A stretch of DNA of 64,000 nt from an uncultured Acidimicrobiales bacterium (lineage in GTDB: Bacteria; Actinomycetota; Acidimicrobiia; Acidimicrobiales; CATQHL01): contig CATQHL010000001.1 in the NCBI GenBank assembly GCA_958295925.1, positions 2,030,780 through 2,094,779 on the forward strand. Reading direction: 5' to 3'. Positions 10,136 to 45,047 of the stretch are shown here, piece by piece. The number at the start of each line of letters is the position of its first letter. Position 1 is the first letter of the stretch. Both the position numbers and the translations under genes were made by a program. The notes below the pieces were generated by a model. The model was not told the origin of the DNA and made no database searches. It saw only the letters and a program-made list of their open reading frames with translations.

Positions 10136-11362
10136 GTGCACTCTCGCCAGGACGTCTTATCTCAGCAGACACTTGACTGGCTTTCAGCCACTCCGATTGA
10201 GCAGCGAAAGAGGCTGGGCCAGTTCATGACGCCTGAGCCGCTGCGGGAGCGGTTGCTCGATAGGTGTGATCTGCGTCCCGGGATGAGGGTGTTGGATCCG
10301 GGTGTAGGCACCGGGGAGTTTCTGGCGTCGGTCAGGAGGCGAGAGCCGCTGGCTGAGATATACGGCTGGGATGTCGACCCCGAGGTTTTGTCGGTGGCGG
10401 GGGGAATGGTGCCGGAAGCCCGCCTGAGCGAGAGATCGGCTCTCGATCCTTATCACGGGGAGCAGTTTGACCTTGTTGTCGGCAATCCTCCTTATTTTCA
10501 GTTCAAGGCGCCGGGCGCAGTGAGGAGCCACTTCTCGCAGGTGATTTCTGGGCGGGTGAACATTTTCGCGCTGTTTTTCCAGGCAGGGTTCGAAGTGCTG
10601 CGTTCAGGTGGTCAGCTTGCCTACGTGGTGCCGCCGTCTATGAACAACGGCGCATATTTTGAGCGGCTGCGCGGGTTCCTGGCGCGCAACGCCAGCATTG
10701 AGTTCCTCAAGATTTACAGGGACCAGTCGTTGTTCGACGGAGCCCGAACCCCTGTTCAGCTGATTGTCTTGCGGTTAGGGGAGAGAGACAGTGGCCGCCA
10801 CGTGTTTGTACGGGAAAGCCCCTCCAACGGTTTTCGGCGGACGATTTTCTCCGAGCGTCCGTCGGAACTTGAGCGGGCCTTCAGTGGAAGGAGGACGATG
10901 TATGAGCTTGGGTATGAGGCTGTCACCGGCACGATTGTCTGGAACCAGCACAAGGCCGACTTGCGTCACGAGGCAGGCAGCAACTCATACCCGCTTATTT
11001 GGGCGCACAACATAAGGGAAACGCTGAGTTTGGACAGCGCCCGTCTCAGGCCGCAATTCATAGAGACGCAACGGATTCCTCTAGTAGGCCCCGCAATAGT
11101 GACCAACCGCATAGTCGGCTCTGTCGGCTCGGCGGAATTCAGGTGCGCACTGGTTCCCGAAGGGATGAGCTTCCTGGGCGAGAACCACGTAAACGTCATT
11201 AAACCTCGCGGAATAATCAAACCTGAGATCAGCATGCCACAGTTACTCGATATTCTCAAATCACCACTCACCGTAGATCGAATTCGAAGACTAACTGGAA
11301 ACACGCAAATCTCGGCAACTGAGCTGACGCACCTCCTACCGTTGGTTGCGCAGGAGGTGTGA
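10136..11362 (+). CDS. gamma-class N6-adenine DNA methyltransferase (M.TaqI/Eco57I-like), no cognate endonuclease seen
   Basis: The motif order is X-I-IV: GQFMTPEPL, RVLDPGVGTGEFL, FDLVVGNPPYF, then NIFALFF..LRSGGQLAYVVP and a roughly 200-aa TRD-like C-terminal half. The start is uncertain (GTG 10136 or ATG 10226). The ORF-track extension back to 9791 overlaps fhs and is rejected. Confidence 0.85.
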   Translation: MHSRQDVLSQQTLDWLSATPIEQRKRLGQFMTPEPLRERLLDRCDLRPGMRVLDPGVGTGEFLASVRRREPLAEIYGWDVDPEVLSVAGGMVPEARLSERSALDPYHGEQFDLVVGNPPYFQFKAPGAVRSHFSQVISGRVNIFALFFQAGFEVLRSGGQLAYVVPPSMNNGAYFERLRGFLARNASIEFLKIYRDQSLFDGARTPVQLIVLRLGERDSGRHVFVRESPSNGFRRTIFSERPSELERAFSGRRTMYELGYEAVTGTIVWNQHKADLRHEAGSNSYPLIWAHNIRETLSLDSARLRPQFIETQRIPLVGPAIVTNRIVGSVGSAEFRCALVPEGMSFLGENHVNVIKPRGIIKPEISMPQLLDILKSPLTVDRIRRLTGNTQISATELTHLLPLVAQEV

Positions 11363-11379
11363 GCGTACGCTTCCGAGTT

Positions 11380-11988
11380 TCAGCTAGTTGTATCTCGGTC
11401 AGGTTTGATACGGTCTACGAGCCGCCAGACGCTTGAGCTTGGATTAGAGCCTTCCCGATTTTCGTTGCACTTATGCCGTTCGTCAAGGTCCTTGGCTCGC
11501 TCTTTGGCTTTTTCGTAGTTCTTTAGTATCGTAGGAGTGCTGCTTTTGGGGACTCTTTTGCCAGCAACAATCGAAAGTTGTTCAGCACGCTTTTGGATTA
11601 CCTTGCTATTAATATAGCCTGTCCGATCTTCACAATGCAGCACTAGCCACAGTTCAAAACAAGGGTTGGAGATGACGGTCTTGATTCCATTCTTGCGCGC
11701 TAATTCCTTTGCTTTATCAAGATCTGAGTGTTGATTCACATCGAAGACGCACCAAACTTCGTTATAGTCATCATCTCCACTCTGAGATTTACGAGTCTGA
11801 TCCATTGTCGCTTCTTTTACCAAGTTTAGTGGTGAATCGCCGTAGCTCCCTAAGCTAAGTTGCACACTATTATTTTGTCTATTCCAAATCTGAAGATAGT
11901 CTCTCTCAGTTTGTCCGTCGGTGTGTACTCGTATTCTCCTAGCGCGATTCTTTGCTTGCTTGGGTCGCCGCGAACCTTTTGGGGGCAT
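11380..11988 (-). CDS. RloB-like protein (AbiLii-type partner of the ATPase)
   Basis: N-terminal RIRVHTDGQTERDYL corresponds to the CEG..TE..YF-type motif. VWCVFDVNQH and ISNPCFELWLVLHCED are RloB hallmarks. Its ATG shares one base with the ATPase stop (TGATG). Confidence 0.85.
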   Translation of the reverse strand: MPPKGSRRPKQAKNRARRIRVHTDGQTERDYLQIWNRQNNSVQLSLGSYGDSPLNLVKEATMDQTRKSQSGDDDYNEVWCVFDVNQHSDLDKAKELARKNGIKTVISNPCFELWLVLHCEDRTGYINSKVIQKRAEQLSIVAGKRVPKSSTPTILKNYEKAKERAKDLDERHKCNENREGSNPSSSVWRLVDRIKPDRDTTS

Positions 11989-13256
11989 CAGAGATCAGCA
12001 GAGTGTATTTCCAAGTCGAAATTCGCATGATCGAGGTCAGGCACTCCACCATATCTGCCCACGAGATAGTCTTTCCTTATATCCGTATCCTTGGGCAGAC
12101 TGAAGTCAGTTAGTGGATAAATGCTGGAGACGCCCTCGTGAGTCTTTTTGGTAAGCCAGATTTGGTCAGGCCCCAACCCGTGTAGCTCAATGTCCTCAAA
12201 TAGGTTGTAATCATGGGAATTGAAGATTAGTTGAGCACAGTAAGGATTCTTATGTCCGCTCTGGAAGATGTCAACAGTATGCCTTACTAGACTGGGATGC
12301 AAGCTGGCGTCTAGCTCATCGACTAACAAAACCGTGCCGTCCAAGAGAGAATCGTGTATCTTTCCGACAAGTCCAATCCAGACCTTTGTTCCCAGCGACT
12401 CGTCAAATGATTCGAATTCGAATTCGCCCCAGGGGCTTGAGTGCGTGAGTCGGTAAGGTTCTTCGAACGGATCATCAATGCGCTTTGAAGCTTCATCAAC
12501 CTGTTTGATGTCTGCAACTCCGAGATCTGCAGCACGAATAAGGTTAAGAATATATTTTTTTGTGCTTGGATCCTCAATTAGATGGGAAGTGTGGTAGCCT
12601 CGCATACCACGATTAAGAGAATCTGCCAATTGCAGGTTGTTCTCAAACCAGGAATACAATGGTAGAATTATTGTTTCCCTGAGAGCACCTGCAACAGAAA
12701 GTAGTAGTATATTGTTGCGAAGAAGCTTGTGAAAATAGTTGCTAGTAGGGCGTAGAGATGATCCAAAGGAAATTTCTTCTTCGTTGCGTTCAAAAATAGT
12801 GACTCGACGCCCTTTCGGGTAGTAGTAGGCATGTTCACTAAGCACGTCATTATCGTCTATTGTAAAACCGTAACGCCAGTATACACCTGATATAAGCAGA
12901 TTGACTTCGAAACAAGAAGGCTGCTGAGCAGACTCTTTATCTAGCAGGAAAGGACGACGAAACACGACTTCATCTTTGAATGATTTCAATATAACACTGC
13001 GCATGTCTTTCATGGCTCTCAAGAATGTCGTCTTTCCGGAGGCGTTTGCTCCGAAAATGCCTGCGACCGGCAAGACTTCTACGTGCTTGCCGCTTGCCGT
13101 GGGGAGTTCGCGTGCCGCTGATTGCTTGGCGTGTGAGCCAGCATGCATCGAAAAGTGTTCTTTGTCCCTGTAAGAGAGCACATTCTCCGACTTGAACGAC
13201 AAGAGAGCACTCTGTGAAGGATCAACGATCTCACTGTATTTTGCAGTGGTGCGCAT
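11988..13256 (-). CDS. ABC/SMC-like AAA ATPase (AAA_15/AAA_21 type; AbiLi/RloA-like), copy 1
   Basis: Walker A GIFGANASGKTT, DESLGT, Walker B LLVDELDASLHP and H-loop IFNSHD. It is translationally coupled to the RloB-like gene and is very AT-rich relative to the host. Confidence 0.9.
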   Translation of the reverse strand: MRTTAKYSEIVDPSQSALLSFKSENVLSYRDKEHFSMHAGSHAKQSAARELPTASGKHVEVLPVAGIFGANASGKTTFLRAMKDMRSVILKSFKDEVVFRRPFLLDKESAQQPSCFEVNLLISGVYWRYGFTIDDNDVLSEHAYYYPKGRRVTIFERNEEEISFGSSLRPTSNYFHKLLRNNILLLSVAGALRETIILPLYSWFENNLQLADSLNRGMRGYHTSHLIEDPSTKKYILNLIRAADLGVADIKQVDEASKRIDDPFEEPYRLTHSSPWGEFEFESFDESLGTKVWIGLVGKIHDSLLDGTVLLVDELDASLHPSLVRHTVDIFQSGHKNPYCAQLIFNSHDYNLFEDIELHGLGPDQIWLTKKTHEGVSSIYPLTDFSLPKDTDIRKDYLVGRYGGVPDLDHANFDLEIHSADL

Positions 13257-13290: not shown

Positions 13291-13412
13291 TCTGAACGCC
13301 CTAAACGGGTAAGAATGCGACTAGATCGACTTGGCCGACTGGCTGATCGTGGAATTGTGCAAGGTTCGCGATGATCGTCTTGCTGGGCGGGAAACGTGGA
13401 AAGGAGGGTCAC

Positions 13413-15725
13413 ATGGTGACAATGGTCGGAGCGAGCGTCGTCCGTAAAGAGGACGAGAGCCTTCTGACAGGCAGGGGGAGTTACGTGGACTCTGTTCGGC
13501 TGCCGGGCACCCTCGTAATGCACTTTGTGAGAAGTACGGAGGCGCACGCCCGTATTGTCTCCGTCGACACCGAGGCTGCGGCCGCAGCGCCGGGGGTGCA
13601 TGCCGTCTTTGTGGCTGAGGACTTCGGCGAATACGGCAACCTGCCGGGCGCACCTGGAATGGACTGCCCGTTGCTTGCGCGCGGCGTAGTGCGATTTGCG
13701 GGAGAGGGGGTAGCCCTGGTGGTGGCCGATGATCACGCCTCCGCAGCGGACGCGGCAGTGCTGGTTGAAGTGGACTACGAACCGCTGGAGGTGGTGACCA
13801 CGCCGATCGAGGCGATGGCCGAAGGGGCGCCCGTGCTGCACGAGGCGATCGGCTCCAACGTGCTCCTGGACACGCCTTGGCCGGACAACCTGGCCGCTCT
13901 CTTCTCCGAAGCCCCGCGCACGGCTTCGCTGAGGTTCTGGAACAACCGGTTGCATCCCGTGCCGATGGAGACCAGCGTCGTTCTCGCCGACTGGAAGCAC
14001 GACAAGCTCACAGTGTGGGCGTCCACGCAAGTGCCGCACGCACTGCGTAACACGCTTTCGAACTTCCTCGACATTCAGCAAAGCCGCTGTCGCGTCGTCC
14101 AGCCGGATGTGGGGGGAGGATTCGGCGCCAAGGTGCAGTGGTATCCCGAGCTCCTGCTGGCGCCGATCGCCTCCAAGCGGCTGGGGCGCCCCGTGAAATA
14201 CGTTCAGACGCGCACCGAGTGCTTCCAGGCCATGTTCCCCGGGCGCGATCAGCACCACTCCGTCGACGTTGCGTTCGACGACGACGGCAAAATCCTAGGC
14301 ATTCGCAGCGACGTGATCGCCGACTGCGGCGCATATCCCGATGTTCCTGTGGCCCTGGGCATGCCCACGCTTACGAACTGGATGTCGTCGGGCTGCTACG
14401 CCGTCCCGGCGATTTCGGCAGGCCACAAGGTGGTAGCCACCAACAAGACCCCCTATTCCTCATATCGCGGCGCCGGGCGGCCGGAGGCGGCCTACCTGAT
14501 CGAGCGTGTAGTTGATCTTGTTGCCGCCGAGACAGGGCTCGACCCGGTGGATGTGCGCTTCGCCAACTTCATTCCCGCCGACGCCTTCCCCTACGAGGTG
14601 CCGCACTCCAAAGTCTGTTACGACAGTGGAAACTACAAGGAATCGCTGAAGAAACTGCTGAAGATCGCCAACTACGAGGCCCTCAAGGCCGAGCGGGAGC
14701 GCCGCAACTCAAACCCGGACGAGAAATTGATGGGCATCGGCTTTTCCACATGGGTGGAGATTGCCTCATTCGGGCCGCGCGGCTCGATGGAGGCTTTCGG
14801 GCACATTGGCAGCTACGAGTCGTCGCAGGTGCGGATTCAACCCGACGGCACGGCAATTGTGAACACGGGGGCCGCCCCGCACGGACAGGGGACGGTGACA
14901 GTCCTCTCTCAGATTGCCGCAGACGAGCTGCAGATTCCCTTTGACTACATCATCGTGCGTTACGGCGACACCGACTCGACCCCGCAGGGCGTGGGCACCA
15001 TGGGTTCGCGCACGGCCGCGCTGGCAGGGGAGTCCACCAAGCTGGCAGCGCAGAAGGTGATGGGCGTCGCCCGCCGGGTGGCGGCTCACCTGCTCGAGGC
15101 CAACCCCGACGACGTTGTCTGCGAGGAGGGCAGGTTCTCGGTGGTGGGCACGCCAGAGAAGTCCATCGGCTGGCGGGAGGTCGGCTGGGCGGGGCTGTCG
15201 CCCATGCAGCTTCCCGAAGGCCTGGAGACTGGCTGCCTGGAGTCGACGGCCTACTTCGAGCCTTCAGGCTTCACGTTCCCCTTCGGCGCCTACCTGTGCG
15301 TGGTGGGAATCGACAGGGAGACGGGCGACATTGAGATCGAGCGGTTTCTTACGGTGGACGACTGCGGGACGGTGCTGAATCCGATGCTGGCCGACGGACA
15401 GGTGCAGGGAGGAATCGTGCAGGGCATAGCCCAGGCGCTGTATGAGGAGATGCGCTACGACTCGGAGGGTCAGCCGCTCACGGCCAACCTGGTGGACTAT
15501 TTGATGCCCGCCGCTTCCGACGTGCCGTCGATTGCAAGCGACCGCACGGTGACACCCACTCCGCACAACTCCCTTGGCGCCAAGGGCGTCGGCGAGGCCG
15601 GTTCAATCGGGGCGCCGCCGGCGGTGATCAACGCAGTGGTTGACGCCCTGAGCCGGTTCGGGGTTAGCCACATCGACATGCCGGCCACGCCTGAGAGGAT
15701 CTGGCGCGCAATGCGGGGCGCCTAG
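13413..15725 (+). CDS. xanthine dehydrogenase/aldehyde oxidase/CoxL-family molybdopterin-binding large subunit (orphan copy 1)
   Basis: N-terminal VRKEDESLLTGRGSYVD, DVGGGFGAK, active-site loop YRGAGRPEA and C-terminal LGAKGVGEAGSIGAPPAV. ATG 13413 follows AGGAGGG. No adjacent 2Fe-2S or FAD subunit gene is present. Confidence 0.9.
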   Translation: MVTMVGASVVRKEDESLLTGRGSYVDSVRLPGTLVMHFVRSTEAHARIVSVDTEAAAAAPGVHAVFVAEDFGEYGNLPGAPGMDCPLLARGVVRFAGEGVALVVADDHASAADAAVLVEVDYEPLEVVTTPIEAMAEGAPVLHEAIGSNVLLDTPWPDNLAALFSEAPRTASLRFWNNRLHPVPMETSVVLADWKHDKLTVWASTQVPHALRNTLSNFLDIQQSRCRVVQPDVGGGFGAKVQWYPELLLAPIASKRLGRPVKYVQTRTECFQAMFPGRDQHHSVDVAFDDDGKILGIRSDVIADCGAYPDVPVALGMPTLTNWMSSGCYAVPAISAGHKVVATNKTPYSSYRGAGRPEAAYLIERVVDLVAAETGLDPVDVRFANFIPADAFPYEVPHSKVCYDSGNYKESLKKLLKIANYEALKAERERRNSNPDEKLMGIGFSTWVEIASFGPRGSMEAFGHIGSYESSQVRIQPDGTAIVNTGAAPHGQGTVTVLSQIAADELQIPFDYIIVRYGDTDSTPQGVGTMGSRTAALAGESTKLAAQKVMGVARRVAAHLLEANPDDVVCEEGRFSVVGTPEKSIGWREVGWAGLSPMQLPEGLETGCLESTAYFEPSGFTFPFGAYLCVVGIDRETGDIEIERFLTVDDCGTVLNPMLADGQVQGGIVQGIAQALYEEMRYDSEGQPLTANLVDYLMPAASDVPSIASDRTVTPTPHNSLGAKGVGEAGSIGAPPAVINAVVDALSRFGVSHIDMPATPERIWRAMRGA

Positions 15726-15871
15726 TCGTAGTTCGCTCTGTTCTGATTTGGCAAGTACTTAAGGTGTTCTCTTTCAGTTACTTGGCCTTCGGTGTGGATT
15801 CGAATTACTTGGTTAGTATTAATTCCTGTCGGGCGATGTCTAGGTTATTCATACGAGTTTCCATGGTGCTA

Positions 15872-17185
15872 CTAGGTTGTTGCCAGCTCGAAGTCTGCAG
15901 GGTCAAGATTTGGTATTCCTCCGTATCTGCCAAAGAGGTAACGGTGCATGAATGCCTCATCCTTTCGTGTGTTATAGCTGCTGAGAGGATAAATGCTCGT
16001 GATACCGTGCAGATCTTTTTCGGCAAACCAGATTTGATCTCTGCCTAGACGGGGAAATTCGCCCTCTTCAAGCAGAGTGGGATCGTGTGAGTTGAAGATT
16101 AGTTGAGAGCACTTTGGGTTTGTTTTGGGGTCTTGAAATAGACGTATGACTTGCTGGACGAGAAGAGGGTGAAGACTTGAGTCAAGCTCGTCGATCAGTA
16201 TGTGCGTACCGCTGCCTAAAGCAAACAAAATTGGGCCGATTAATCCTATCCACGTTAGTGTTCCCAAGGATTCATCTTCGGCATCGAGCGCGACGGAGCC
16301 CGACGGAGTCGAGTGGGTCAGCTTGAGGATGTCGTTGACAAACATAACCTCATCGTCATTTAATTCTTCATTGCCAGTGAGAATTGCTGCGGCTTTTTTC
16401 ATTCGCTCCATAATTTCGGGACTTGTTGGAACCCGCTCAATGTCAGTAATACCAAGGTCGGCAGATCTCAAGAGTAACAACACGCGCTCGCGCACGTTCA
16501 GATCCCTCGACATGTCGGCGGTAAATACACAGCGCAAATCGCGGTTGTCGGATTCGGCTAGTTGAAAGTTATTTCTAAACCATAAAAAGAGCGAGCTGAG
16601 AGGGTAGTGGGCGGTTGCGCCTGCGACAGAAAGCAGAAGGGAATTGCCTCGAAGAAACGGAAGCAGCAAACGTCCTAAAGAACGGAAGCGGGGGCCGAAT
16701 GTGGTGCGATCCCCGTCGCGCTCAAAGACCAGCGCCTTACGCCCGTTGGGGTAGTGAAAGGCGAACTCATTCAGCACCCGAGTGTCGTCAAACTCGAAGC
16801 CGTACTGCCAGCGGACGCCTTCGACTATGAGGTCGATTTCGAAACTTGAGGGCCGTCGAGCAGATTCGTCGTCTAACAGGAACGGGCGACGGTACATACC
16901 GCTCTCCACGTTGCCCTGTCGGAAAGAACTCAAGACGACCTTGCGCATGTCATCGATCGCCTTGAGGAGGGTTGACTTTCCGGAGGCGTTGGCGCCGAAA
17001 ATGCCCGCTGCAGGCAGTACTCGGACGGGGCTGCCGGCCGTGGGCAGGGCATGAACCGCCGATTTCTCTGAGAGCCTTCCGGCATGCATAGGCAAATACA
17101 CCTCGTCCCGGTAGGAGCGAACGTTCTCTGCGGCGAATGACAAGAGAGCACTTGGGAGAGAAGAAGGAGTTTCTAAGGCGGACAT
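15872..17185 (-). CDS. ABC/SMC-like AAA ATPase, paralog (copy 2) of 11988..13256, no RloB partner
   Basis: It aligns end to end with copy 1 (AGIFGANASGKST, RRPFLLD, LLLSVAGA, DESLGT, ILIDELDSSLHP, QLIFNSHD, GRYGGIPNLD). It ends in a double stop, TAGTAG. Confidence 0.9.
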   Translation of the reverse strand: MSALETPSSLPSALLSFAAENVRSYRDEVYLPMHAGRLSEKSAVHALPTAGSPVRVLPAAGIFGANASGKSTLLKAIDDMRKVVLSSFRQGNVESGMYRRPFLLDDESARRPSSFEIDLIVEGVRWQYGFEFDDTRVLNEFAFHYPNGRKALVFERDGDRTTFGPRFRSLGRLLLPFLRGNSLLLSVAGATAHYPLSSLFLWFRNNFQLAESDNRDLRCVFTADMSRDLNVRERVLLLLRSADLGITDIERVPTSPEIMERMKKAAAILTGNEELNDDEVMFVNDILKLTHSTPSGSVALDAEDESLGTLTWIGLIGPILFALGSGTHILIDELDSSLHPLLVQQVIRLFQDPKTNPKCSQLIFNSHDPTLLEEGEFPRLGRDQIWFAEKDLHGITSIYPLSSYNTRKDEAFMHRYLFGRYGGIPNLDPADFELATT

Positions 17186-17191
17186 AGTTAG

Positions 17192-17220
17192 ATTTTTGCG
17201 GAATTTTCGTAGAAAGTCAA
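17192..17220 (-). promoter_or_regulatory. putative sigma70-like promoter giving a leaderless ATPase-2 transcript
   Basis: On the minus strand: TTGACT (17220-17215), 17 nt, AAAAAT (17197-17192), 6 nt, ATG (17185). The geometry matches the copy-1 promoter, but the -10 element is weaker. Confidence 0.3.
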
Positions 17221-17292
17221 CTTAAAATCGTAGCAAACACTTTTCTGCTGGCACCCTTGCTGCGCGGCGCGGGCGCATCGCGGGGGAGGGGA

Positions 17293-18225
17293 TCAGCTAT
17301 CCGCCAGCCGCTCGGCTTGGCGCAGGTGCTCGGTCAGCTCGGCCAGGGGGCAGCGGGCGTTCAGCCCGCTGGTGGAGGGCATCAAATAGACGGGACGGCC
17401 CCCTACGCGGCGGGGCTGCGCCCCGGGCTCGGCGCGCCGGTCGACGCCAGCCCGCCAGCCCGCCAGGCCCACGAAACAGACGACCGCCGGCTTCAGCCAG
17501 CCTGCCAGGGTGTCGAGCCGCTGCAGCCCGTGCTTGAACTCCGAGGCGGCGATTTCCCCGGCGCGCCTGGAAGGGCGCTTAACCAGGTCTGTCATTCCCA
17601 CGCCGTGTTCGAGCAGTGCGCGGCGCGGGCAGCGATTCGTCGAGACCAGGCCGGCGAGGAGGGCGGCAGGCCAGAAGCGGTTTCCTGCCGTGGCGAAGCC
17701 CACGCCGACTTCGGCGGAGTACAGGCTGGGATTCAAGCCACAGACGAGCAGCCGCATCCCGCTCCCCACGGTGTCGGGCAAGGTGTGCGAGCGTCGGGCA
17801 TTGACGAGCAGGGTGCGCTCCTGCTGCTGGATCGACTCGGGGGCCAGACCGGCCCCTTCGAGGACTGCTCGGAGCAGCGTCAGGGGCCAGTGCGAGAAGC
17901 GCCGCCGGGGGAAGTCGTCGTTGGCGACCTCCCCCCATTCCATGTCCCCGGCGAAGAGATGCATCTCAACCTTGCTCTCGGGTGCCAGCGCTGCGTGCAG
18001 GTCGGCGAGCGCCAGGGGCACCTCTGAGCGGGGAAGATGCACGTACGACCGCGAAGCCCACGCTCCACGCAATGATCCTCGGCGAAACGGAAGGTGGCGC
18101 AAATCCCCTGCCACACGCAGCCCGCCTTCGCATTGGGCAAGCATGGAGCGGCTGGCGTCGAAAGCCACTGCGGGCTGCGGAAGCAGGCGCGTGTGCCAGC
18201 CCGGACCGCATCCCAGGTCGGCCAC
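17293..18225 (-). CDS. fusion protein: class I SAM-dependent methyltransferase + family-2 uracil-DNA glycosylase (Mug/TDG-like)
   Basis: The N-terminal half has DLGCGPGWH (motif I), DLRHLPF and a Methyltransf_11-like layout. The C-terminal half has LLVCGLNPSLYSAEVGVGFATAGNRFW and MPSTSGLN, which are Mug hallmarks. The coordinates use GTG 18225. The true start is probably CTG 18339, which lies 5 nt after AAGGAGG (see findings). Confidence 0.8.
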   Translation of the reverse strand: MADLGCGPGWHTRLLPQPAVAFDASRSMLAQCEGGLRVAGDLRHLPFRRGSLRGAWASRSYVHLPRSEVPLALADLHAALAPESKVEMHLFAGDMEWGEVANDDFPRRRFSHWPLTLLRAVLEGAGLAPESIQQQERTLLVNARRSHTLPDTVGSGMRLLVCGLNPSLYSAEVGVGFATAGNRFWPAALLAGLVSTNRCPRRALLEHGVGMTDLVKRPSRRAGEIAASEFKHGLQRLDTLAGWLKPAVVCFVGLAGWRAGVDRRAEPGAQPRRVGGRPVYLMPSTSGLNARCPLAELTEHLRQAERLADS

Positions 18226-18718
18226 CGGCCCTTCCTCCAGTCTTTGGCCGAATGCCTCGAGGCGTTTCAGGAACCGGGGAGAGCGGCGTCTTACCCATTC
18301 CTCCGCACGTCGGTCATAGACATCGACGGTCTCGTCCAGGGGTTCCTCCTTTCGGTCAAGGTTGATTGGTGAACATTGTTTCAGGGAGTAAGTAGAATTG
18401 CCGTCGTGGTCAACAGCAAATCCAAATCCGTAGAAAAGGTGAAGTCGCAGAGTCAGTCGACGCTTGGAACACAGTCAGTTGGCACCTCTGCGGTTCTGGG
18501 CGAAGCCCTCGCGCTTATCGATTGCAAGCTGGGGGAGGTTTCCATGCGGGAACTGGTGTCACGAACGGAGTTCACCGACTTGCTGTTGGACCTGCGCATC
18601 CTGCTCGCTGCCGAGGCGGAGGCGCTTTCCAGCAACTGAGCTGCGTGCAGCCGAAGTCGGGAGCGGATTCCCGCCCGGTGAGAACGCATCCTTTAAGAGA
18701 AGGCCACGAGGAGACGGA

Positions 18719-21163
18719 GTGACCACCCGCCTAATTGGTGCGAGCGTCCCGCGAAGCGAGGATCGGCGCATCTTGGACGGCGCCGGAGTCTTTATAGACG
18801 ACATCGAGCCCGCCGGCTGTCTGCACGTTGCGATGGTGCGATCCACTTGCGCCAACGGGCGCATCAGAAGGGTGGATGCCACGCCAGCGCGGGCCGCTCC
18901 GGGCGTGGTAGCCGTTTACACAGCGGACGACCTGGGGGAACTAGGTCGGAGGAACCTTCCCCTGCTGATTCCCAACCCAGCCCTCACCGAACCTCGAACG
19001 CAGTTTCTGCTCGCCTTCGAGTACGTGCATTTTGTGGGCGAGGCAGTGGCGATGGTGGTGGCGGAGAGCCGTTACGCAGCCGAAGACGCTGCAGGGCTGG
19101 TGGAGGTTGACTACACGGAGTTCCCGGCGGTCGTCGGGCCGTTGAACGCCTTTCATTCCAAAGAGCGCGCGCACGTGGACATGAACACCAACGTGGCGGC
19201 CCACTTTGTGCAGGAGCACGGCGACACGGAGGCGGCGTTTGAAGGGGCCACGCGTGTTCTCGAGCGTGAATTTATGGTGGAGCGCAGCGCCGCTACGCCC
19301 ATCGAGTGCCGAGGGGTGGTGGCGATACCCGAGCAGACCGGCCAACTCCTGGTCTACGACTCGTCGCAGGCGCCAAGCACTATCAGGGCGGGGCTATCCA
19401 CCTACCTCGGGGTAGCCGAGCATGAAGTGGAGGTGGTGGCTCCCGACGTGGGCGGGGGATTCGGCGTCAAGCTGCCGGTTTTCTATCCTGAGGAAATACT
19501 CGTTCCGTGGGCTGCGAGGCGCCTGGGCGCCCCTGTGAAGTTCGTAGAGGACCGCTCTGAGCACTTCGTTGCCTCCAACCACGAGCGGGCGCAGTGGCAC
19601 AGGGTGAAGGTCGGATACGAGGAGGATGGGCGCATCTGCGGACTGGTCGACGAGTTCATCCACGATGCGGGCGCCTACTGCCCGTACGGGATCATCATCC
19701 CCATCGTCACGGCCAGCAGGCTGCCGGGGCCATACAAGATCCCCGCGTACGGCAGCGAGATGCATGTCGTCTACACAAACACCGTGCCCGTCACGCCGTA
19801 CAGAGGCGCAGGGATGCCGCAAGGTGCTTTCGTGATGGAGAGGGTGATTGACCTGATTGCGCGCGACCTGGGCGTCGACAGGGCAGAGGTGCGACGAAGA
19901 AACTTCATCGCCCCAGACGAGTTTCCCTACGTGGTCGGACTCATGGACGAGGACGGCACCACCACCACCTACGACAGTGGCGACTACCCCAGGGGGTTCG
20001 AGAAACTCCTCGAGTCGATCGGCCATGCGGGCTTTCCCGCTGAACAGGCCGCGGCTCTAGCGGAGGGAAGGCGCATCGGAATCGGCTTCGGCTGTTACGT
20101 GGAAGGGACGGGCTGCGGCCCCTACGAAGGGGCCCGCATCCACGTGGAGACAACCGGGAAGGTCTTTGTGAGCACCGGCATAGCCACCCAGGGCCAGTCG
20201 CACTGCACCATCCTCTCGCAGATCGTTGCCGACGTTCTTGGCGTGGCGCTCGACGACGTGGTGGTGAAGACGGGGGACACGCGGCAATTCAAGTGGGCCA
20301 CTGGGACTTTCGCCTCCCGCATAGCGGTTGTGGCGGGCAGCGCCGTGGCAGAGGCGGCATTGCTCGTAAAGGAAAAAGCAGCCGAGATAGCGGCGAGAAT
20401 TTTCGAAGCCAGCACGGCCGACGTCGCCTTCGAAGACGGCGACGTCTTCGTGAAGGGTTCGCCTGACGTCCGGATCCCGCTTCGGCAGGTCGCGGTGCTC
20501 GCCAACCCTCTCCGCTACGCATTCAGCAGTGAAGCCCTCGCCGCCACACAGTTCGTCGGCGACGGCGAGCGCGCCAAGGCCCCTCCGCCTTCGGAGGTTG
20601 CGCCCGGCCTGGAGGCGACGGCGTACGCCAGCCCTGAGTTCGCCACATTTGCCAGCGGTGCGCATGCCGCAGTGGTGGAGGTGGACGTGGAGACTGGCGC
20701 GGTGCGCATTCTGCGCTACTCGGTGGTGCACGACTGCGGGAGGATGATCAACCCCGCTGTTGTCGAGGGGCAGGTGCACGGCGGCACGGCCCAGGGGATC
20801 GGCGGGGCGCTGTACGAGCGGATTTGCTACGACGAGGAGGGGCAGCTGAAGAACGCCAACTTCATGGACTTTCTCGTCCCGTATGCCTCGGAGATTCCTG
20901 AGATTTGCGTGGAGCACACCGAGACGCCCTCGCCCTTGAATCCCCTCGGAGTCAAGGGCGTGGGGGAGGCGGGCTGCATCTCAGCTGCGCCGGCTGTAAT
21001 AGGCGCGATTGAGGATGCCCTGGGCGTCGAGATCACGTCTTCGCCTCTCAGCCCTGAGATGGTCGCGGGGTTGGCTGCGGGCAGCGCAGGCGGTGAGGCG
21101 GCGGGCTCATTCGCGGCGAGAGGGGGCGTTGGGCAGTCTCGAGGTGAAACAGATGGTGCTTGA
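18719..21163 (+). CDS. xanthine dehydrogenase/CoxL-family molybdopterin-binding large subunit (copy 2)
   Basis: VPRSEDRRILDGAGVFIDD, DVGGGFGVK, YRGAGMPQGAF and LGVKGVGEAGCISAAPAV. GTG 18719 follows GAGGAG. The ORF-track extension to 18464 is rejected. Confidence 0.9.
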   Translation: MTTRLIGASVPRSEDRRILDGAGVFIDDIEPAGCLHVAMVRSTCANGRIRRVDATPARAAPGVVAVYTADDLGELGRRNLPLLIPNPALTEPRTQFLLAFEYVHFVGEAVAMVVAESRYAAEDAAGLVEVDYTEFPAVVGPLNAFHSKERAHVDMNTNVAAHFVQEHGDTEAAFEGATRVLEREFMVERSAATPIECRGVVAIPEQTGQLLVYDSSQAPSTIRAGLSTYLGVAEHEVEVVAPDVGGGFGVKLPVFYPEEILVPWAARRLGAPVKFVEDRSEHFVASNHERAQWHRVKVGYEEDGRICGLVDEFIHDAGAYCPYGIIIPIVTASRLPGPYKIPAYGSEMHVVYTNTVPVTPYRGAGMPQGAFVMERVIDLIARDLGVDRAEVRRRNFIAPDEFPYVVGLMDEDGTTTTYDSGDYPRGFEKLLESIGHAGFPAEQAAALAEGRRIGIGFGCYVEGTGCGPYEGARIHVETTGKVFVSTGIATQGQSHCTILSQIVADVLGVALDDVVVKTGDTRQFKWATGTFASRIAVVAGSAVAEAALLVKEKAAEIAARIFEASTADVAFEDGDVFVKGSPDVRIPLRQVAVLANPLRYAFSSEALAATQFVGDGERAKAPPPSEVAPGLEATAYASPEFATFASGAHAAVVEVDVETGAVRILRYSVVHDCGRMINPAVVEGQVHGGTAQGIGGALYERICYDEEGQLKNANFMDFLVPYASEIPEICVEHTETPSPLNPLGVKGVGEAGCISAAPAVIGAIEDALGVEITSSPLSPEMVAGLAAGSAGGEAAGSFAARGGVGQSRGETDGA

Positions 21164-39234: not shown

Positions 39235-40489
39235 CGGGTTTCCAGCTCCGGCAAGGGGGTCGCTTGGAGCTGCGGGCCGAGTTCCAGCGGTCGGGGGTGA
39301 AGGCGAGCGCCCGGGGGTAGTCCTCAAACAGCCAGCGGGCGAACTCTCGACGGGTGAAGGGGCTGAGGCCGGAGATCGCCACCGCCAAGTCAGCCCCCCG
39401 GGGTGATCGAAGGACTCCTCTGAGGCTGCAGGCCAGTCGGAAGTCACGAAGCAGATGCCGTTCAACTCCGGTCAGGTAGCGACTACGTACGCCGTCAACG
39501 TCGAAAGGTCCCGCCGAGATGAGGGCTTCCGCCGCAAGAATGCCGCTGAGCAGGGCTTGGCCGATCCCCTCGCCTGTCATGGGGTCGCCTGCTGCTGCTG
39601 CGTCCCCGCAGAAGAGCACTCGCGGCGCCCAGAGAGCGAGGTCTCCCAGGCGGGTGGGAATTGGCCACGCCCTGGGCCGCTCCTCGGCTTCAGCGCCTGG
39701 ACCGAGCACATCGGCGATCCAGCGACGCTTCAGCAGCCTCTGCCAGAGCCTGCCCATCCCGCCGGTGGGGTGATTGCCCCGCCACACCCCGAATCCCACG
39801 TTTGCGCGGCCTCCAGGCAGGGGAAACGACCAGACGTAGCCAGGCAGGATCTCCGGCTCGAACCACACGTGCATGGTTTCGGAGTCCTGGGCGGTCACGT
39901 TTCGGAAGTACTGCCGGCAGGCGTGCCAGTCGCCCCGGTAGGAGGCTGGGGAAAGCCCCAGCATCCGGCGCGAGGGAGACCACATTCCGTCGGCGGCCAC
40001 CACGTACCGTGAATGCACCCTGCCCAGCCCTTCGGCGGTTACCGCAACCCGATCCGAGCGCAGATCCATCCCCTTGACGGCGCAGCGCTCGAAGACCCTT
40101 GCCCCGGCGTCCTTGGCCAGGGACCAAAGGGCGTTGTCGAGGTGGCGGCGCTCGGCGACGGCGGCGTAGGCGCCGGAGCCCTTCGGGAACGGGAAGGAGA
40201 CCTGGCGCCCTCCAGGGGAGCGGATCACCACCCTCGAGGCGATCTGCCATCCGCCTGTCACAGAGGGATCGAGACCGAGTTGCCCCAGCAGGCGAAGGGC
40301 GCCGGCCGTAAGGCCGTCGCCGCAGCACTTGTCGCGGGGCAGGGAGGCTTTTTCCAGTACCACCACCGAGAGCCCCGCCCTTGCCAGCACCGTCCCGGCG
40401 GCTGAGCCGGCAGGCCCTCCCCCAATAACCGTTACGTCCGCGGTGGCTGCTTCCACAGGACGGCCGGGCGTGTTCCAACTGGCTCTCAT
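39224..40489 (-). CDS. geranylgeranyl-reductase-family FAD-dependent oxidoreductase
   Basis: DVTVIGGGPAGSAAG, LEKASLPRDKCCGDGLT and GDAAAAGDPMTGEGI. Confidence 0.8.
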   Translation of the reverse strand: MRASWNTPGRPVEAATADVTVIGGGPAGSAAGTVLARAGLSVVVLEKASLPRDKCCGDGLTAGALRLLGQLGLDPSVTGGWQIASRVVIRSPGGRQVSFPFPKGSGAYAAVAERRHLDNALWSLAKDAGARVFERCAVKGMDLRSDRVAVTAEGLGRVHSRYVVAADGMWSPSRRMLGLSPASYRGDWHACRQYFRNVTAQDSETMHVWFEPEILPGYVWSFPLPGGRANVGFGVWRGNHPTGGMGRLWQRLLKRRWIADVLGPGAEAEERPRAWPIPTRLGDLALWAPRVLFCGDAAAAGDPMTGEGIGQALLSGILAAEALISAGPFDVDGVRSRYLTGVERHLLRDFRLACSLRGVLRSPRGADLAVAISGLSPFTRREFARWLFEDYPRALAFTPDRWNSARSSKRPPCRSWKPVSP

Positions 40490-40534
40490 CCAGGTTGGCG
40501 TTTCGAGGAGGGGATTTTTCTTTGGGCTGGCGCG

Positions 40535-42514
40535 CTAGCCAGCCTGCGCTTCGGGCGACGACGGTTCGGCCGGCTGCTCACTGGGCTGCCCTGAGGTGTC
40601 GGGAGCCCCCACCCCGGGCTGGGGATCGGATTGGGCTCCGTCATCTGGCGCGGGAGGACGCCAGTCAGCCGAAACGCAAGTACCCGGCGGGCCCTCCTCT
40701 GCTGACCCGCAGATTGGAATGCAGGTCGGCTGCCCGCTTTCGGTGGTGGTCATCTCCCCTTCGCAGATGGGCTGGCAATTCGCCGGGACGCCCTGGCCCT
40801 CGGTGCATATCGGTCTGCAGGAGTCGTTCCAGCCGTCGTCGTTGGTGTCCACCGCGGCTTGCCCCAAGGCACAGTCAGGCGGCGGCACCTCAGGTTCGCC
40901 GTCGCAGTTCAGCCCTTCGGCGGGTCGGTAGACGGCGAAGACTGTGTCTTCCTCGCTGGTTCCGTCAAAATAAGCCCTGGTGCGGGTGGTGATGACCCTC
41001 TGGCACTCCCTCTCTTGAATTACCTCCTGGCCGCTTTGAACAACGTCCATGTGTTTCGTGCTGTAGATGCTCACTGTCACTGAGCCTTCGGTGGAGGTGG
41101 GCCAGAGCATTATCGAGTAGGGGGTGTTGTTAATGAGCTCAAGGTTGGGGCGAGGATAGGAGATCGTGGCTTCCCGCCCGTAGGGGTAGCGGGAAATGTA
41201 GAGAGTGTGCGCCTGGTATTCCCCGAAGTCCAGTCCCGCAAAAAACGCTGCGTTGAAAATAGTGGTGGCGAACTGCGAAACCCCCCCACCGATGTCCTCC
41301 CGGTAGAGGCCGCGGTAAATCACGCCTCCAGGCACGAATCCCTTCGCCGTTGTGCGCCTGCCCACGTAGCTGTTGACAGACCAGGTTTCGCCAGGGGCGA
41401 TAATCGCCCCCTGAACTATCTCCGCGATTCTGCGGATGTTCGTGACCCGACTCTGACCAGGCGTGAAGTAGGTGGTGAACTGGCCCACGAGTTCCCGAAT
41501 TCCGGTCTCTTCCATCAGGTCGACGTCATTTTCAGGGTCCTCGGTGAGCGTGAGCTGAACGTTGCTCCCCCCGGCGAGGACTGTCTCAAAAACCTTCTCG
41601 CCTATGCCCTCTGTGCAGCAGCGGAACGACGGGGTGGCCCCAACCACCGTCGGTGTGCCGTCGATCAGATCGAAGTGCCCGGCGCTGCCTTGAATCCTCA
41701 CCGCTGAAAGCCTCTGCTCGAGAAGGTCACCCACATATTCGGTGTCGATTTCGATTTTCGGCGGGTTTCCGTGTGTAAGGGTAATCCAGCTTCGCAGCTC
41801 GTCCGGGCTGACGACCCAGAACTCATCCCCGATGTACAGCCTGAGCCCTTTGGCGGTCAACTGATTGGCATAGTCAACGGTGGGCTGCAGCGATATTGAC
41901 GGGACGTTCGGGGGAATCGTCGAAGGTGTCAGGATGAGCGATTCCGGCAGGGAGACCCTCTCGGTGGCATCCTCGAGTGCCCTTCGCAGGGCCTCTGAGG
42001 TGATCTCCTCCCCTGTGCTGCCAGGGACTACCTGAAAGGAGCGCCCGTGCTCCTGCGGGTTGTCGGCGAAGATGAGTTGCGCATTGGCGGGTTCCGAGAG
42101 GCGGATCGCCTGAAAGCCCCTGATGAACTCCTCGGCGTCGGCGGCGCTCCAGAGAGTCTTGAGGTGGACCTCGTAAGGGGTGAAGAAGGCGCCGATCCAT
42201 CGGAATGGAATAGACGCCAGAGAGCCTCTGCCCGCCTTGAGCGCGTCGCTCACGCCCTTGGCCACGTCGACTCGAAAACCCAACTGGCTGGCAGTTGCCA
42301 CAAGCGAGCGGTCGGGAAGGAGCAGGCTTACCTCTCGCTGCGAGAATTCCTCGGCCATCGACTGAATCCTTGCCCGCACATCTTCCTCGCTCAGCCCCCC
42401 CACGGCGACGCCCTCCACCGAGACGTTGCGCACCGAGCCGTCGGAATTGGCGGCGTAGTCCACTATCAAGGCGACCATGAACGCCACGACGACGAGGACC
42501 GCCAAAAATATCAA
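40535..42514 (-). CDS. VanW-family membrane-anchored protein with Cys/Pro-rich C-terminal extension
   Basis: N-terminal TM helix and a VanW-like core (YISRYPYGREATISYP...LELINNTPYSIMLW). The C-terminal tail carries three CxPIC motifs. TTG start is uncertain. Confidence 0.75.
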   Translation of the reverse strand: MIFLAVLVVVAFMVALIVDYAANSDGSVRNVSVEGVAVGGLSEEDVRARIQSMAEEFSQREVSLLLPDRSLVATASQLGFRVDVAKGVSDALKAGRGSLASIPFRWIGAFFTPYEVHLKTLWSAADAEEFIRGFQAIRLSEPANAQLIFADNPQEHGRSFQVVPGSTGEEITSEALRRALEDATERVSLPESLILTPSTIPPNVPSISLQPTVDYANQLTAKGLRLYIGDEFWVVSPDELRSWITLTHGNPPKIEIDTEYVGDLLEQRLSAVRIQGSAGHFDLIDGTPTVVGATPSFRCCTEGIGEKVFETVLAGGSNVQLTLTEDPENDVDLMEETGIRELVGQFTTYFTPGQSRVTNIRRIAEIVQGAIIAPGETWSVNSYVGRRTTAKGFVPGGVIYRGLYREDIGGGVSQFATTIFNAAFFAGLDFGEYQAHTLYISRYPYGREATISYPRPNLELINNTPYSIMLWPTSTEGSVTVSIYSTKHMDVVQSGQEVIQERECQRVITTRTRAYFDGTSEEDTVFAVYRPAEGLNCDGEPEVPPPDCALGQAAVDTNDDGWNDSCRPICTEGQGVPANCQPICEGEMTTTESGQPTCIPICGSAEEGPPGTCVSADWRPPAPDDGAQSDPQPGVGAPDTSGQPSEQPAEPSSPEAQAG

Positions 42515-42670
42515 GCTCCTCAGGGGAGTCCAGAGCCTGCGGCGGGGGATGGTGGACGGCTTTTGTGTGGGCAGAGGAGGGGGAAGGGAAGGGAGGTGTA
42601 TGCAGTGAGAGTATCGCTGCCGCCTGCTCTTGTATGAGAGGCTGCGTCTCCGCTGCGACAGTGGCGGCGG

Positions 42671-43330
42671 TCAGAAGAGCCGCAGTTCCTCAGGGGCGTC
42701 GCCCTTCAATCTTGAGTAGTCCACCAACAGGCAGCGGATTCCGCGCTCTTCGGCCAGGACACGCGCCCCGGGGTTGATTTGTTGCGCTACAAGAAGCCCG
42801 CAGACCGGCGCCAGCGTCTCGGTCTTGTTGAGGAACTCAAGGTATCGGGCCAGTTGCTCCACCCCGGTGGTTTCGCCGCGCCGCTTAACCTCCACAGCCA
42901 CGACATTCCCGTCGGCGTCCCTAACCAGCAGGTCCACAGGCCCGATGGCGGTGGGGTACTCGCGCCGAATGAGCCTGTAGTCCTCTCCCAGGACGCTCGG
43001 GTCGTTCGCCAGCAACTCCTGGAGGTGCGCCTCCACGCCGTCTTTCCAAAGACCGGGGTCTTCCCCCAGGTCGTGGGAGACGTCGGAGACCACCTCGTGA
43101 AGGGTGATGACGAGCCGCTCCCCGGCTTCGTTGGAGACCACCCAGCGCCCTTCGGATTCTTCCAGGAAGTTTGGCGGCGACATCCAGTTCAGGGGCTTGT
43201 AGGCGCCGCCGTCTGCGTGAATCGCCAGGCTGCCGTCGGCCTTTCTCATGATGAGACGGACAGCCTCCTCAAGGCGGGCGGCCAGGCGCCCCTCGTACTC
43301 GACGGTGCAGCGGGCGACCACCAGGCGCAT
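42671..43330 (-). CDS. nucS: endonuclease NucS (EndoMS)
   Basis: [16 protein letters not shown]..., [15 protein letters not shown] and [19 protein letters not shown] (RecB-like nuclease core). Confidence 0.9.
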
Positions 43331-43333
43331 TGC

Positions 43334-44266
43334 TCAGGGAGTCGCCGAGCCGGGTTGGGGTCGGCCGCCGGAGGGGGCGGCCAATAGGCCCAGCACCTCC
43401 TCCGCCAGCTCATGTCGGCAGACAATCAGGTCGTCCAGCAGCGGGCTGGGGAGGTTGAAGCGGGGCTTGCTCCCGTCGAAGCGGGAGACCCTGAGCCCAT
43501 GGGCCCTGGCCACCGCCGAAGGTGCCGCCGCGTCCCATTCCCACAAGCCGCCGGAATGGACATAGACGTCCGCCTCCCCTCGAATGAGGGCGGCGACCTT
43601 GGCTCCCACGGAACCGATCCGCAGCAGGCCGCCGCCGAAGTGCTCCGCAAGGGCTTTGGCCTCGCTTACGTGTCGGGAACGGCTTGCCACAACCACAGGC
43701 CGGCGCCCCCCGGTCGCATCCTTCCCTCGGGTGGATGCACCTGCCACCTGTTTGGATGCACTTGCCCGGGCCGTCTTGATCAGTATCCCGGCAGCGGGCA
43801 GCGCCACCGCACCCGAGACGGCTTCGCCTCCTTCAACCAGGGCGACATGAACCGCCCAGTCGGTCCGGGAACGCTCGCAGTACTGCCTAGTGCCGTCGAG
43901 CGGGTCAACGATCCAGACCCGGTTATTGCCCAGCCGCTCGCGGTCGTCGGGGGCTTCCTCGGACAACAGGGCGTCATCGTGACGGCATTCCGCCAGCCGC
44001 GAGGCAATCAGTTCGTGGGAGCGCCTGTCTCCAATGGCGCCGAGGGTGGCCGGGTCGGCCTGCGGAGGTGTTTCACCTCGCAGCGCCAGCAGCATCTCCC
44101 CCGCCTCCCCCGCCAGCGCAGCTGCAAGGTCGTGGTCGTTGGCGAGTGCAAGGTCGTGGTCGTTGGCGGGCGTCCTTCCGAAGCTCAACTCGCCTACACA
44201 GCTCGACTTGAGCCTGTCGGGCGCATCATTGCCGCCCGCTGCGCCGCCCGGCATGCTGCGAATCAT
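43334..44266 (-). CDS. cysQ: 3'(2'),5'-bisphosphate nucleotidase / inositol monophosphatase family
   Basis: LSEEAPDD, WIVDPLDGTRQY and WEWDAAAP. The start is uncertain because the N-terminal region contains a tandem duplication. Confidence 0.8.
   Translation of the reverse strand: MIRSMPGGAAGGNDAPDRLKSSCVGELSFGRTPANDHDLALANDHDLAAALAGEAGEMLLALRGETPPQADPATLGAIGDRRSHELIASRLAECRHDDALLSEEAPDDRERLGNNRVWIVDPLDGTRQYCERSRTDWAVHVALVEGGEAVSGAVALPAAGILIKTARASASKQVAGASTRGKDATGGRRPVVVASRSRHVSEAKALAEHFGGGLLRIGSVGAKVAALIRGEADVYVHSGGLWEWDAAAPSAVARAHGLRVSRFDGSKPRFNLPSPLLDDLIVCRHELAEEVLGLLAAPSGGRPQPGSATP
44123..44170. repeat. 24-bp in-frame tandem duplication (2 units, 23/24 identical) inside cysQ
   Basis: tgcaaggtcgtggtcgttggcgag (44123-44146) is followed directly by tgcaaggtcgtggtcgttggcggg (44147-44170). 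It encodes ANDHDLAL-ANDHDLAA. Confidence 0.9.
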
Positions 44267-45045: not shown

Positions 45046-45047
45046 GG

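Follow-up and report, generated by a model that had tools for sequence, protein, structure and literature searches.

Here we examined a gene on the minus strand of a 64,000-nucleotide stretch of an uncultured Acidimicrobiales genome (contig CATQHL010000001.1, positions 2,030,780 to 2,094,779, hereafter the window) that fuses a class I S-adenosylmethionine (SAM) methyltransferase to a Mug-type DNA glycosylase. The explanation we favor, at a probability of about 0.7, is that this is a conserved Acidimicrobiia repair fusion whose start codon has mutated to CTG, and that the ATPase gene beside it is an unrelated passenger. In the mechanism we propose, the methyltransferase domain would be rigidly packed on a C-terminal Mug/TDG (family 2) glycosylase domain. 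Repair by the Mug half would consist of flipping out and excising pyrimidines that are deaminated or adducted and lie opposite G, such as U:G and ethenocytosine-type lesions, with the Asn of a GLNPS motif positioning the water, and this repair would be coupled to the SAM-dependent activity of the methyltransferase half. An ancestral ATG, GTG or TTG would have changed to CTG, with a strong Shine-Dalgarno motif at a conserved position before it, and because of that motif the full-length protein would most likely still be made from CTG 18339, at a reduced level. Some N-truncated product from GTG 18225 may also appear. The ATPase would be an orphan AbiLi (AbiL abortive-infection) paralog that arrived on a low-GC insertion of 1.5 kb and has a promoter-like sequence of its own. 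We infer the glycosylase specificity, the methyltransferase activity and the initiation at CTG.

The fusion gene and its family

The fusion frame is free of stops between a TGA at 18477-18475 and the TGA at 17295-17293 (positions are those of the window; features are collected in Table 1). Its first ATG, GTG or TTG is GTG 18225, which would yield 310 amino acids, and the public record (P0001) annotates the protein from that codon. Translation from CTG 18339 gives 348 amino acids with the N-terminus LDETVDVYDRRAEEWV. The translation contains the motifs DLGCGPGWH, DLRHLPF, LLVCGLNPSLY...GNRFW and MPSTSGLN, and a 107-bp gap separates the gene from the start codon of the ATPase (17185) on the same strand. 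The sequence details given in an earlier sequence-only reading of the window, among them the spacing between the CTG and its AAGGAGG, are all reproduced here. That reading also took the single minus-strand open reading frame (ORF) to be a class I SAM-methyltransferase half joined to a family-2 uracil-DNA glycosylase (UDG) half, and suggested searches with profile hidden Markov models. Those searches matched both Methyltransf_25/11 and UDG PF03167, and Pfam and NCBIfam agree on the two halves. An Rfam scan of 17100-18800 gave no match. With a GC content of 0.69 and a GC content at third codon positions (GC3) of 0.80, the fusion is native-like in composition; GC3 is 0.81 in both XDH1 and FTHFS.

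A protein search recovered more than 100 full-length two-domain proteins of 340-417 amino acids. The few named entries appear as “methyltransferase domain-containing protein,” “uracil-DNA glycosylase family protein” or “TDG/mug DNA glycosylase family protein,” and they come from the Acidimicrobiia and from “Candidatus Poriferisocius.” When one genome per species was scanned, at least 400 loci matched, from which the 80 best were fetched and examined. All of these 80 belong to Acidimicrobiia or to Actinomycetota metagenome-assembled genomes (Acidimicrobiales, Microthrixaceae, Iamiaceae and Poriferisocius), and their full-length orthologs are about 348-390 amino acids long. Members of the Acidimicrobiia family, for example P0002, P0040 and P0059, have the same architecture and length as the window copy at 55-77% identity and share part of its synteny. 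The window copy differs from them in two respects, as it alone lacks a canonical start codon and it alone has an ATPase gene inserted downstream. Searches of phage and plasmid collections returned no full-length fusion, and the matches there were to the Mug half at 32-40% identity. By this comparison, the window gene is best described as a plain ortholog of a class-wide, apparently vertically inherited Acidimicrobiia family.

Exhaustive searching with only the methyltransferase half as query yielded 235 clusters at E <= 1e-10, comprising fusions, fragments and some proteins of 190-200 amino acids. Several of the short proteins examined were fragments of fusions at contig ends. Genuine stand-alone homologs were found in three loci (L085, 5001-5588; L084, 6001-6582; L086, 4644-5240), with 34-38% identity, and no Mug sequence was detected near any of them. 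A split methyltransferase and Mug gene pair of the Rosetta-stone type is thus unsupported, since these three have no nearby Mug gene. The stand-alone methyltransferase of L085 follows DUF2207, a position common to many fusions, a hint that a fixed locus has either acquired or lost the Mug domain. Separately, an apparent 211-amino acid stand-alone methyltransferase in L087 (P0132, 5001-6060) proved to be a frameshifted fusion in which the similarity to Mug continues in another frame. Several neighboring genes on that contig also look fragmented, pointing to an error-prone assembly.

The Mug/TDG glycosylase half

Pfam places the UDG domain (PF03167) at residues 194-329 of the fusion. The best NCBIfam match for the C-terminal half is the G/U mismatch-specific DNA glycosylase, with E = 1e-23. 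The score of 83.8 bits falls below the cutoff of 144 for the equivalog model NF007570, and on this sequence evidence the Mug half appears to be a divergent subfamily rather than an equivalog of the E. coli type. The alignment of the last 163 residues with E. coli MUG (PDB 1MUG) nonetheless runs from end to end, at E = 3e-20 and about 31% identity.

Both motifs of the family could be located. UDG motif 1, G-(I/L)-N-P-(G/S), carries the water-activating Asn (N18 in E. coli, N140 in human) and is present as CGLNPS. Because GLNPS aligns over GINPG, N203 is the counterpart of the catalytic-position N18 of E. coli MUG. Residues G201, N203, P204 and S205 are invariant across 25 orthologs. UDG motif 2, the DNA-intercalation or minor-groove loop, is represented by MPSTSGLN aligned over E. 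coli LPNPSGLS, and M320, P321, T323, S324 and G325 are invariant among the aligned orthologs. The α/β UDG fold is likewise found in a predicted structure of the fusion (described below), in which Foldseek matched 1MUG with E = 1.9e-14, a target-normalized TM score of 0.84 and a root-mean-square deviation of 2.3 Å. Catalytic-domain chains of human TDG matched the model with TM scores of 0.65-0.80.

The Mug half therefore shares with E. coli Mug and human TDG the fold, the catalytic-position Asn within G-(I/L)-N-P and a second motif of the form P-x-x-S-G-L. Its MPSTSGLN is intermediate between the LPNPSGLS of Mug and the MPSSSA of TDG. Unlike the fusion, Mug and TDG have no 185-residue N-terminal methyltransferase domain. 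The Mug half most likely performs ordinary base-excision repair, with a specificity that we read from homology.

The methyltransferase half and domain packing

In the N-terminal half, Pfam matched Methyltransf_25/11 at residues 39-123 (PF13649, 1e-7; PF08241, 1e-5), with both scores past the cutoffs. The SAM-binding residues are in place. D41-L-G43-C-G45-P-G47 of motif I is invariant in the family, as is D79-L80 with the motif III Asp, and the acidic D61 after strand β2 is near-invariant. In addition, there are two invariant patches that are specific to the family, W94-A-S-R-S-Y-x-H101 and D141-D-F-P-G-R-x-F-S-x-W-P152.

An AlphaFold2 model of the fusion was built on 25 orthologs and reached a predicted local distance difference test score (pLDDT) of 91.6 and a predicted TM score (pTM) of 0.91. 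The high pTM indicates that the methyltransferase and Mug domains have a fixed relative orientation in the model. The methyltransferase strands span residues 39-41, 57-61, 74-77, 90-96, 118-130, 165-173 and 176-183. Taken together, Pfam, the model and Foldseek identify a seven-stranded Rossmann-like fold with N-terminal capping helices. Against the PDB, the closest Foldseek matches to the N-terminal domain were 3E23 (RPA2492, TM 0.76) and 3H2B (cg3271, TM 0.75), and 3E8S (PP NP_744700) was also found. All three share the Methyltransf_11/25 Rossmann-like fold with the fusion, including the N-terminal helices and the residues of motifs I, II and III, and 3E23 and 3H2B are SAM-bound. At the structure level they are about 22-24% identical to the fusion, they are themselves uncharacterized methyltransferases, and the WASRSYxH and DDFPGRRFSxWP patches set the fusion family apart from them. 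Since all SAM-binding motifs are kept together with the two invariant patches, the methyltransferase half is probably active with SAM and looks like an enzyme of the small-molecule type.

The housekeeping-repair explanation has a gap here, in that it accounts for one half of the fusion protein only. A rival reading has the methyltransferase half acting on DNA, either on cytosine or on a flipped-out base. This would make the fusion a self-correcting “write-and-repair” enzyme in which the Mug half removes the deamination products of bases made by the methyltransferase half, following the logic of Dcm/Vsr or DNMT/TDG. The rigid and confidently predicted domain packing is consistent with such an enzyme, as is the invariance of WASRSYxH and DDFPGRRFSxWP, which lie where class I methyltransferases bind substrate, and a domain fusion would in itself imply coupled activities. 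However, reading through the 185-residue domain revealed no (D/N/S)PP(Y/F/W), PC or ENV motif. Pfam returned no N6_Mtase, N6_N4_Mtase or DNA_methylase match, and reported only the Methyltransf_25/11/23 families of the small-molecule type. The nearest structures are small-molecule or uncharacterized methyltransferases, and the stand-alone homologs of L084-L086 occur with no Mug nearby. We therefore regard a DNA-acting methyltransferase half as very improbable.

There are precedents for coupling the handling of methyl groups to the repair of related lesions, whether through an operon or within one polypeptide, in Dcm/Vsr of E. coli and in the AdaA-AlkA fusions of Actinobacteria and Firmicutes. 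In the first of these, a C5 DNA methyltransferase (Dcm) is teamed with an endonuclease (Vsr), and in the second, Ada is a suicidal alkyl acceptor rather than a SAM enzyme. These systems differ from the fusion in that they contain neither a Methyltransf_11/25 domain nor a Mug domain. Full-text literature searches found no report of a methyltransferase-Mug/UDG fusion, and the rigid fusion conserved throughout the Acidimicrobiia has apparently never been characterized.

The start codon of the fusion gene

The sequence-only reading had proposed that the true N-terminus lies upstream of GTG 18225, and comparison with orthologs, which start at the CTG position or one to two codons from it, agrees. 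For example, P0002-P0004 (348-351 amino acids, 75-77% identical) begin with a Met that aligns to the Leu encoded by the CTG in the window. The codon homologous to CTG 18339 is TTG in L001 and L002, ATG in L006 and GTG in L039. The start could be evaluated at 79 loci, in 75 of which a canonical start codon (43 ATG, 28 GTG and 4 TTG) lies between -8 and +2 codons from the CTG position. Three others have a canonical start further upstream, leaving the window as the only one of the 79 without any.

The ribosome-binding region is also homologous in the closest relatives, reading TGGAGAACCG-ATG in L006, CTGAGAACCGA-TTG in L001 and AAGGAGGAACCC-CTG in the window. The duplex associated with the CTG has an energy of -15.8 kcal/mol, near the strongest (-16.6) of 313 in-frame positions and stronger than those of the relatives; these energies assume a typical bacterial 16S 3' tail rather than the tail of this genome's own 16S.

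The residues between the two candidate starts behave as part of the protein. Upstream of GTG 18225, the family has four invariant or near-invariant residues, Y8, W15, R19 and F30. Helices at residues 3-18 and 24-32 precede strand β1 in the model and align to residues 11-47 of 3E23. V39, the residue encoded by GTG 18225, is the first of strand β1, so a product initiated there would lack both N-terminal helices that 3E23 possesses. The model and this alignment agree with the earlier suggestion that a start at GTG 18225 would remove the helices before the SAM-binding loop. The ratio of nonsynonymous to synonymous substitution rates (dN/dS) for codons 2-38 is 0.28 against L001 and 0.20 against L006, values that serve as supporting evidence of low power because they come from 37 codons with saturated dS. 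Together, the conservation, the helices and the dN/dS indicate that the N-terminal extension is coding and that purifying selection has acted on it for at least the greater part of its history.

Several points weigh against initiation at the CTG. The AAGGAGG heptamer occurs in the window at chance frequency (11 found against 10.1 expected), and we rejected it as stand-alone statistical evidence for a start on those grounds. It carries weight through its position, homologous to the ribosome-binding region of the closest orthologs. The 38 N-terminal codons are about 50% identical to those of L001 and L006, compared with about 79% for the remainder, and saturation of dS means that constraint may have relaxed recently, following loss of the start codon. 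In E. coli, CUG initiates at approximately 1-2% of the AUG level, with a range of 0.02-3% by construct (bioRxiv 10.1101/063800). GTG 18225 is preceded by a Shine-Dalgarno-like GGAGGA 8 nt upstream (-11.4 kcal/mol). CTG being a poor initiator, this second ribosome-binding site means that a truncated form could be the main product. Lastly, the base call at 18339 may be in error.

The low efficiency of CUG, the divergence of the N-terminal codons, and the standing of GTG 18225 as sole canonical start with its own GGAGGA are what would be expected if the gene had been decapitated. Translation would then begin at GTG 18225, giving a 310-residue Mug with a crippled methyltransferase remnant, or the gene would be a pseudogene in the making. 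We consider this unlikely. The 38 codons have stayed open, with all four invariant or near-invariant residues kept and a dN/dS of 0.2-0.28, and the Shine-Dalgarno motif before the CTG, being stronger than those of the relatives, shows no decay. The methyltransferase motifs downstream are intact, and the product from the GTG would be missing helices that are present in the closest solved structure.

Alternatively, the CTG could stem from an error in sequencing or assembly, or from a minority allele, the real codon being TTG or ATG and the gene wholly ordinary. A single T-to-C or A-to-C change would turn the L001 TTG or the L006 ATG into the CTG, and no other of the 79 loci has such a start defect. 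Yet the contig is 2.55 Mb long and the neighboring genes examined are without frameshifts or other obvious errors. Substitution errors are also rare in polished long-read assemblies. An error at this codon is accordingly quite improbable. The best reading is that CTG 18339 is the start codon, or a recently crippled one, with initiation there inferred from the comparisons above. On our reading of the alignments, the ancestral start would have become CTG by one substitution, and full-length protein is probably still made from it at a low level.

Synteny of the fusion gene

At about 27 loci, the fusion follows a block of inositol monophosphatase, NucS, VanW and FAD monooxygenase genes, with MurT and GatD further upstream. 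The block and the fusion are immediate neighbors in L001, L003, L006 and about 24 further relatives. In the window, the MurT-GatD-InosP-NucS-VanW-FAD-monooxygenase block lies at 39281-46500, and about 21 kb (18340-39280) now stands between it and the fusion. That interval holds, among others, an XDH2-type molybdoenzyme, a 2Fe-2S subunit, AllG, an M20 peptidase, a luciferase-like oxidoreductase and a GMC oxidoreductase, and represents either a rearrangement or a metabolic-island insertion. An XDH2 ortholog is also the divergent neighbor of the fusion in L005, L007, L008, L010 and L012. In more distant relatives, the recurrent neighbors are a luciferase-like oxidoreductase, SDR, PAP2, DUF2207, DUF7064/7065 and PHA synthase, with no repair or defense partner among them. 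Recurrent neighbors of the fusion are thus housekeeping genes. The proximity of NucS is suggestive, but it is not kept across the class.

Three side observations concern genes near the fusion or its orthologs. A conserved small ORF of about 78 codons begins at GTG 18404 (18404-18639, plus strand) and is divergent from the fusion. It has the core ALALIDxKLGEVSMRELVSRTEFTDLLLDLRxLL, has no Pfam match, and has homologs in 16 Acidimicrobiia loci, typically either immediately upstream of the fusion or within a few kb of it. Given this small ORF, the 899-residue “XDH2” ORF listed from 18464 must start near 18690. In L001, the last ~48 nt of the fusion gene, including the stop codon, are tandemly duplicated just downstream (11000-11120). 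A further AAGGAGG on the plus strand (13401-13407), ~30 nt inside the listed XDH1 ORF (13371-15725), precedes an in-frame ATG (...KEGHM...), which is probably the true XDH1 start.

The downstream ATPase

The gene 107 bp downstream of the fusion encodes an AbiLi-type ATPase according to PADLOC and Pfam, with intact Walker A (GANASGKS), Walker B (LIDELDSSLH) and H-loop. We refer to it as copy 2, as a complete AbiL pair lies 4 kb away and comprises RloB (11380-11988) and AbiLi copy 1 (11988-13256). That RloB belongs to copy 1. No RloB/AbiLii partner was found adjoining copy 2, where the stops of the ATPase and XDH1 are only 146 bp apart. Because identity between the two ATPases is only 47%, we rejected a recent duplication of copy 1. 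Copy 2 may be a decaying remnant, or it may function in trans with the RloB at 11380-11988.

Copy 1 lies within a low-GC (0.46-0.58) defense islet at 10200-13256, between FTHFS and XDH1, which contains an Eco57I-like N6 DNA methyltransferase (plus strand, about 10200-11362) and the complete AbiL pair. The pair occupies the same position in L001, a 77%-identical relative, where the N6 methyltransferase was not seen.

The composition of copy 2 (GC 0.53, GC3 0.58, with AT-rich flanks) contrasts with that of the fusion. In L001, L002 and L006, the fusion stop lies ~80-130 bp from the stop of the convergent XDH1 ortholog with no ATPase between them, and this adjacency in the closest relatives indicates that copy 2 sits on an insertion of roughly 1.5 kb. 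The ATPase ATG has no Shine-Dalgarno motif (-0.8 kcal/mol), and a TTGACT-17-AAAAAT element ends 6 nt before it; the ATPase therefore likely has its own, leaderless transcript. Among 83 loci, an AbiLi-type ATPase was found within 10 kb of the fusion in a single relative (contigs L001/L002). ATPase presence was judged by tblastn; our home-made GC3-based gene caller, in which the fusion was seeded, under-calls low-GC genes. In that relative, the AbiLi+RloB pair is on the far side of XDH1 from the fusion. Elsewhere, the ATPase homolog P0280 (55% identical) is followed by RloB and lies beside AbiE, and another homolog, P0281, has no called partner.

The sequence-only reading had left two alternatives for the fusion, namely an unusual housekeeping repair enzyme or a modification-linked module with the ATPase. 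The first of these is supported, as the family is class-wide and syntenic. The second is not supported, as the ATPase is on an insertion and has no conserved link to the fusion. An anti-phage module of this kind would use the glycosylase against modified phage bases, with the ATPase in the role of sensor or effector. The two genes are indeed on the same strand across a short gap in which no terminator-like site was found, so that read-through co-transcription is possible, a point against treating the ATPase as separate. The AbiL pair and the N6 DNA methyltransferase are 4-7 kb away, and UDG-fold defense effectors exist in the form of Brig1 (PMC11078745) and Brig2-like proteins (bioRxiv 10.1101/2025.10.29.685425). 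Nevertheless, we judge this module exceedingly improbable. The immediate adjacency of fusion and ATPase is seen in the window alone, and the fusion is conserved across the Acidimicrobiia whatever adjoins it, which is the outcome that the earlier reading itself named as pointing to plain repair. The ATPase is foreign in composition, is missing with its insertion from the closest relatives, has its own promoter-like element, and has a homolog paired with RloB.

From the fusion side, a PADLOC scan matched the protein to no defense family. Its native GC3, its housekeeping synteny in ~27 loci, its lack of a conserved partner and its absence at full length from the phage and plasmid collections are not what a defense-island gene would show. 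Reported defense glycosylases of the UDG fold occur in AT-rich, mobile contexts (PMC11078745; bioRxiv 10.1101/2025.10.29.685425), the opposite of the setting of the fusion, and the Brig2-like integron candidates are at most 20% identical to Brig1 (bioRxiv 10.1101/2025.10.29.685425). Brig1 and Brig2-like proteins share the UDG superfamily fold with the Mug half, but they are distant, single-domain proteins of AT-rich or mobile islands, whereas the fusion is a core, syntenic gene of native composition. The evidence from the fusion side and from the ATPase side thus indicates that their adjacency is accidental, and copy 2 is, as far as sequence can tell, a horizontally acquired passenger with no part in the function of the fusion.

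Table 1 Features of the fusion gene and the adjoining ATPase, in window coordinates.
Feature	Position	Strand	Evidence or remark
Methyltransferase::Mug fusion gene	17293..18339	-	348 codons from CTG 18339, TGA stop 17295-17293; Pfam, ortholog alignment, AlphaFold2 model
CTG, putative non-canonical start	18337..18339	-	Orthologs start there (TTG L001, ATG L006, GTG L039)
AAGGAGG Shine-Dalgarno motif, 5 nt before CTG	18345..18351	-	Homologous to TGGAGAA in L006, CTGAGAA in L001
Codons 2-38, two N-terminal methyltransferase helices (H3-18, H24-32)	18226..18336	-	Alignment, model, dN/dS
GTG, only canonical in-frame start, annotated in public record	18223..18225	-	Encodes V39; GGAGGA 8 nt upstream
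Class I SAM-methyltransferase domain, residues 1-185	17785..18339	-	Pfam, alignment, structure comparison
Motif I DLGCGPG	18199-18219	-	Alignment
Family-2 UDG (Mug/TDG) domain, residues 186-348	17296..17784	-	Pfam, NCBIfam, E. coli MUG alignment, Foldseek
GLNPS motif with catalytic-position Asn203	17725-17739	-	Alignment to 1MUG
MPSTSGLN motif	17359-17382	-	Alignment to 1MUG
Sigma-70-like TTGACT-17-AAAAAT element	17192..17220	-	Ends 6 nt before ATPase ATG
Orphan AbiLi-type AAA_21 ATPase (copy 2)	15872..17185	-	PADLOC AbiLi 1.3e-83, Pfam AAA_21 4e-36
Low-GC insertion carrying ATPase, approximate	15729..17243	.	Between fusion stop and convergent XDH1 stop

Implications

Within its family, the window copy is notable for its CTG start alone. 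It offers a natural case of a conserved gene with CTG as its only start behind a strong Shine-Dalgarno motif, which is useful for start-codon annotation, and the current public annotation cuts 38 conserved residues from the protein. For the proposed glycosylase-ATPase defense module, our analysis is a negative result that spares follow-up effort.

Class I methyltransferases and Mug/TDG glycosylases are each known from textbooks; the fusion itself has only generic database names. If the methyltransferase half did act on DNA, the fusion would be a class-wide, single-polypeptide “write-and-proofread” enzyme, a bacterial analog of Dcm/Vsr or DNMT/TDG, built on a methyltransferase fold for which no action on DNA was known before. 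More generally, the role of the methyltransferase domain could reveal a new coupling of SAM chemistry to base-excision repair in the Acidimicrobiia, a poorly studied, high-GC and mostly uncultured class that includes sponge symbionts.

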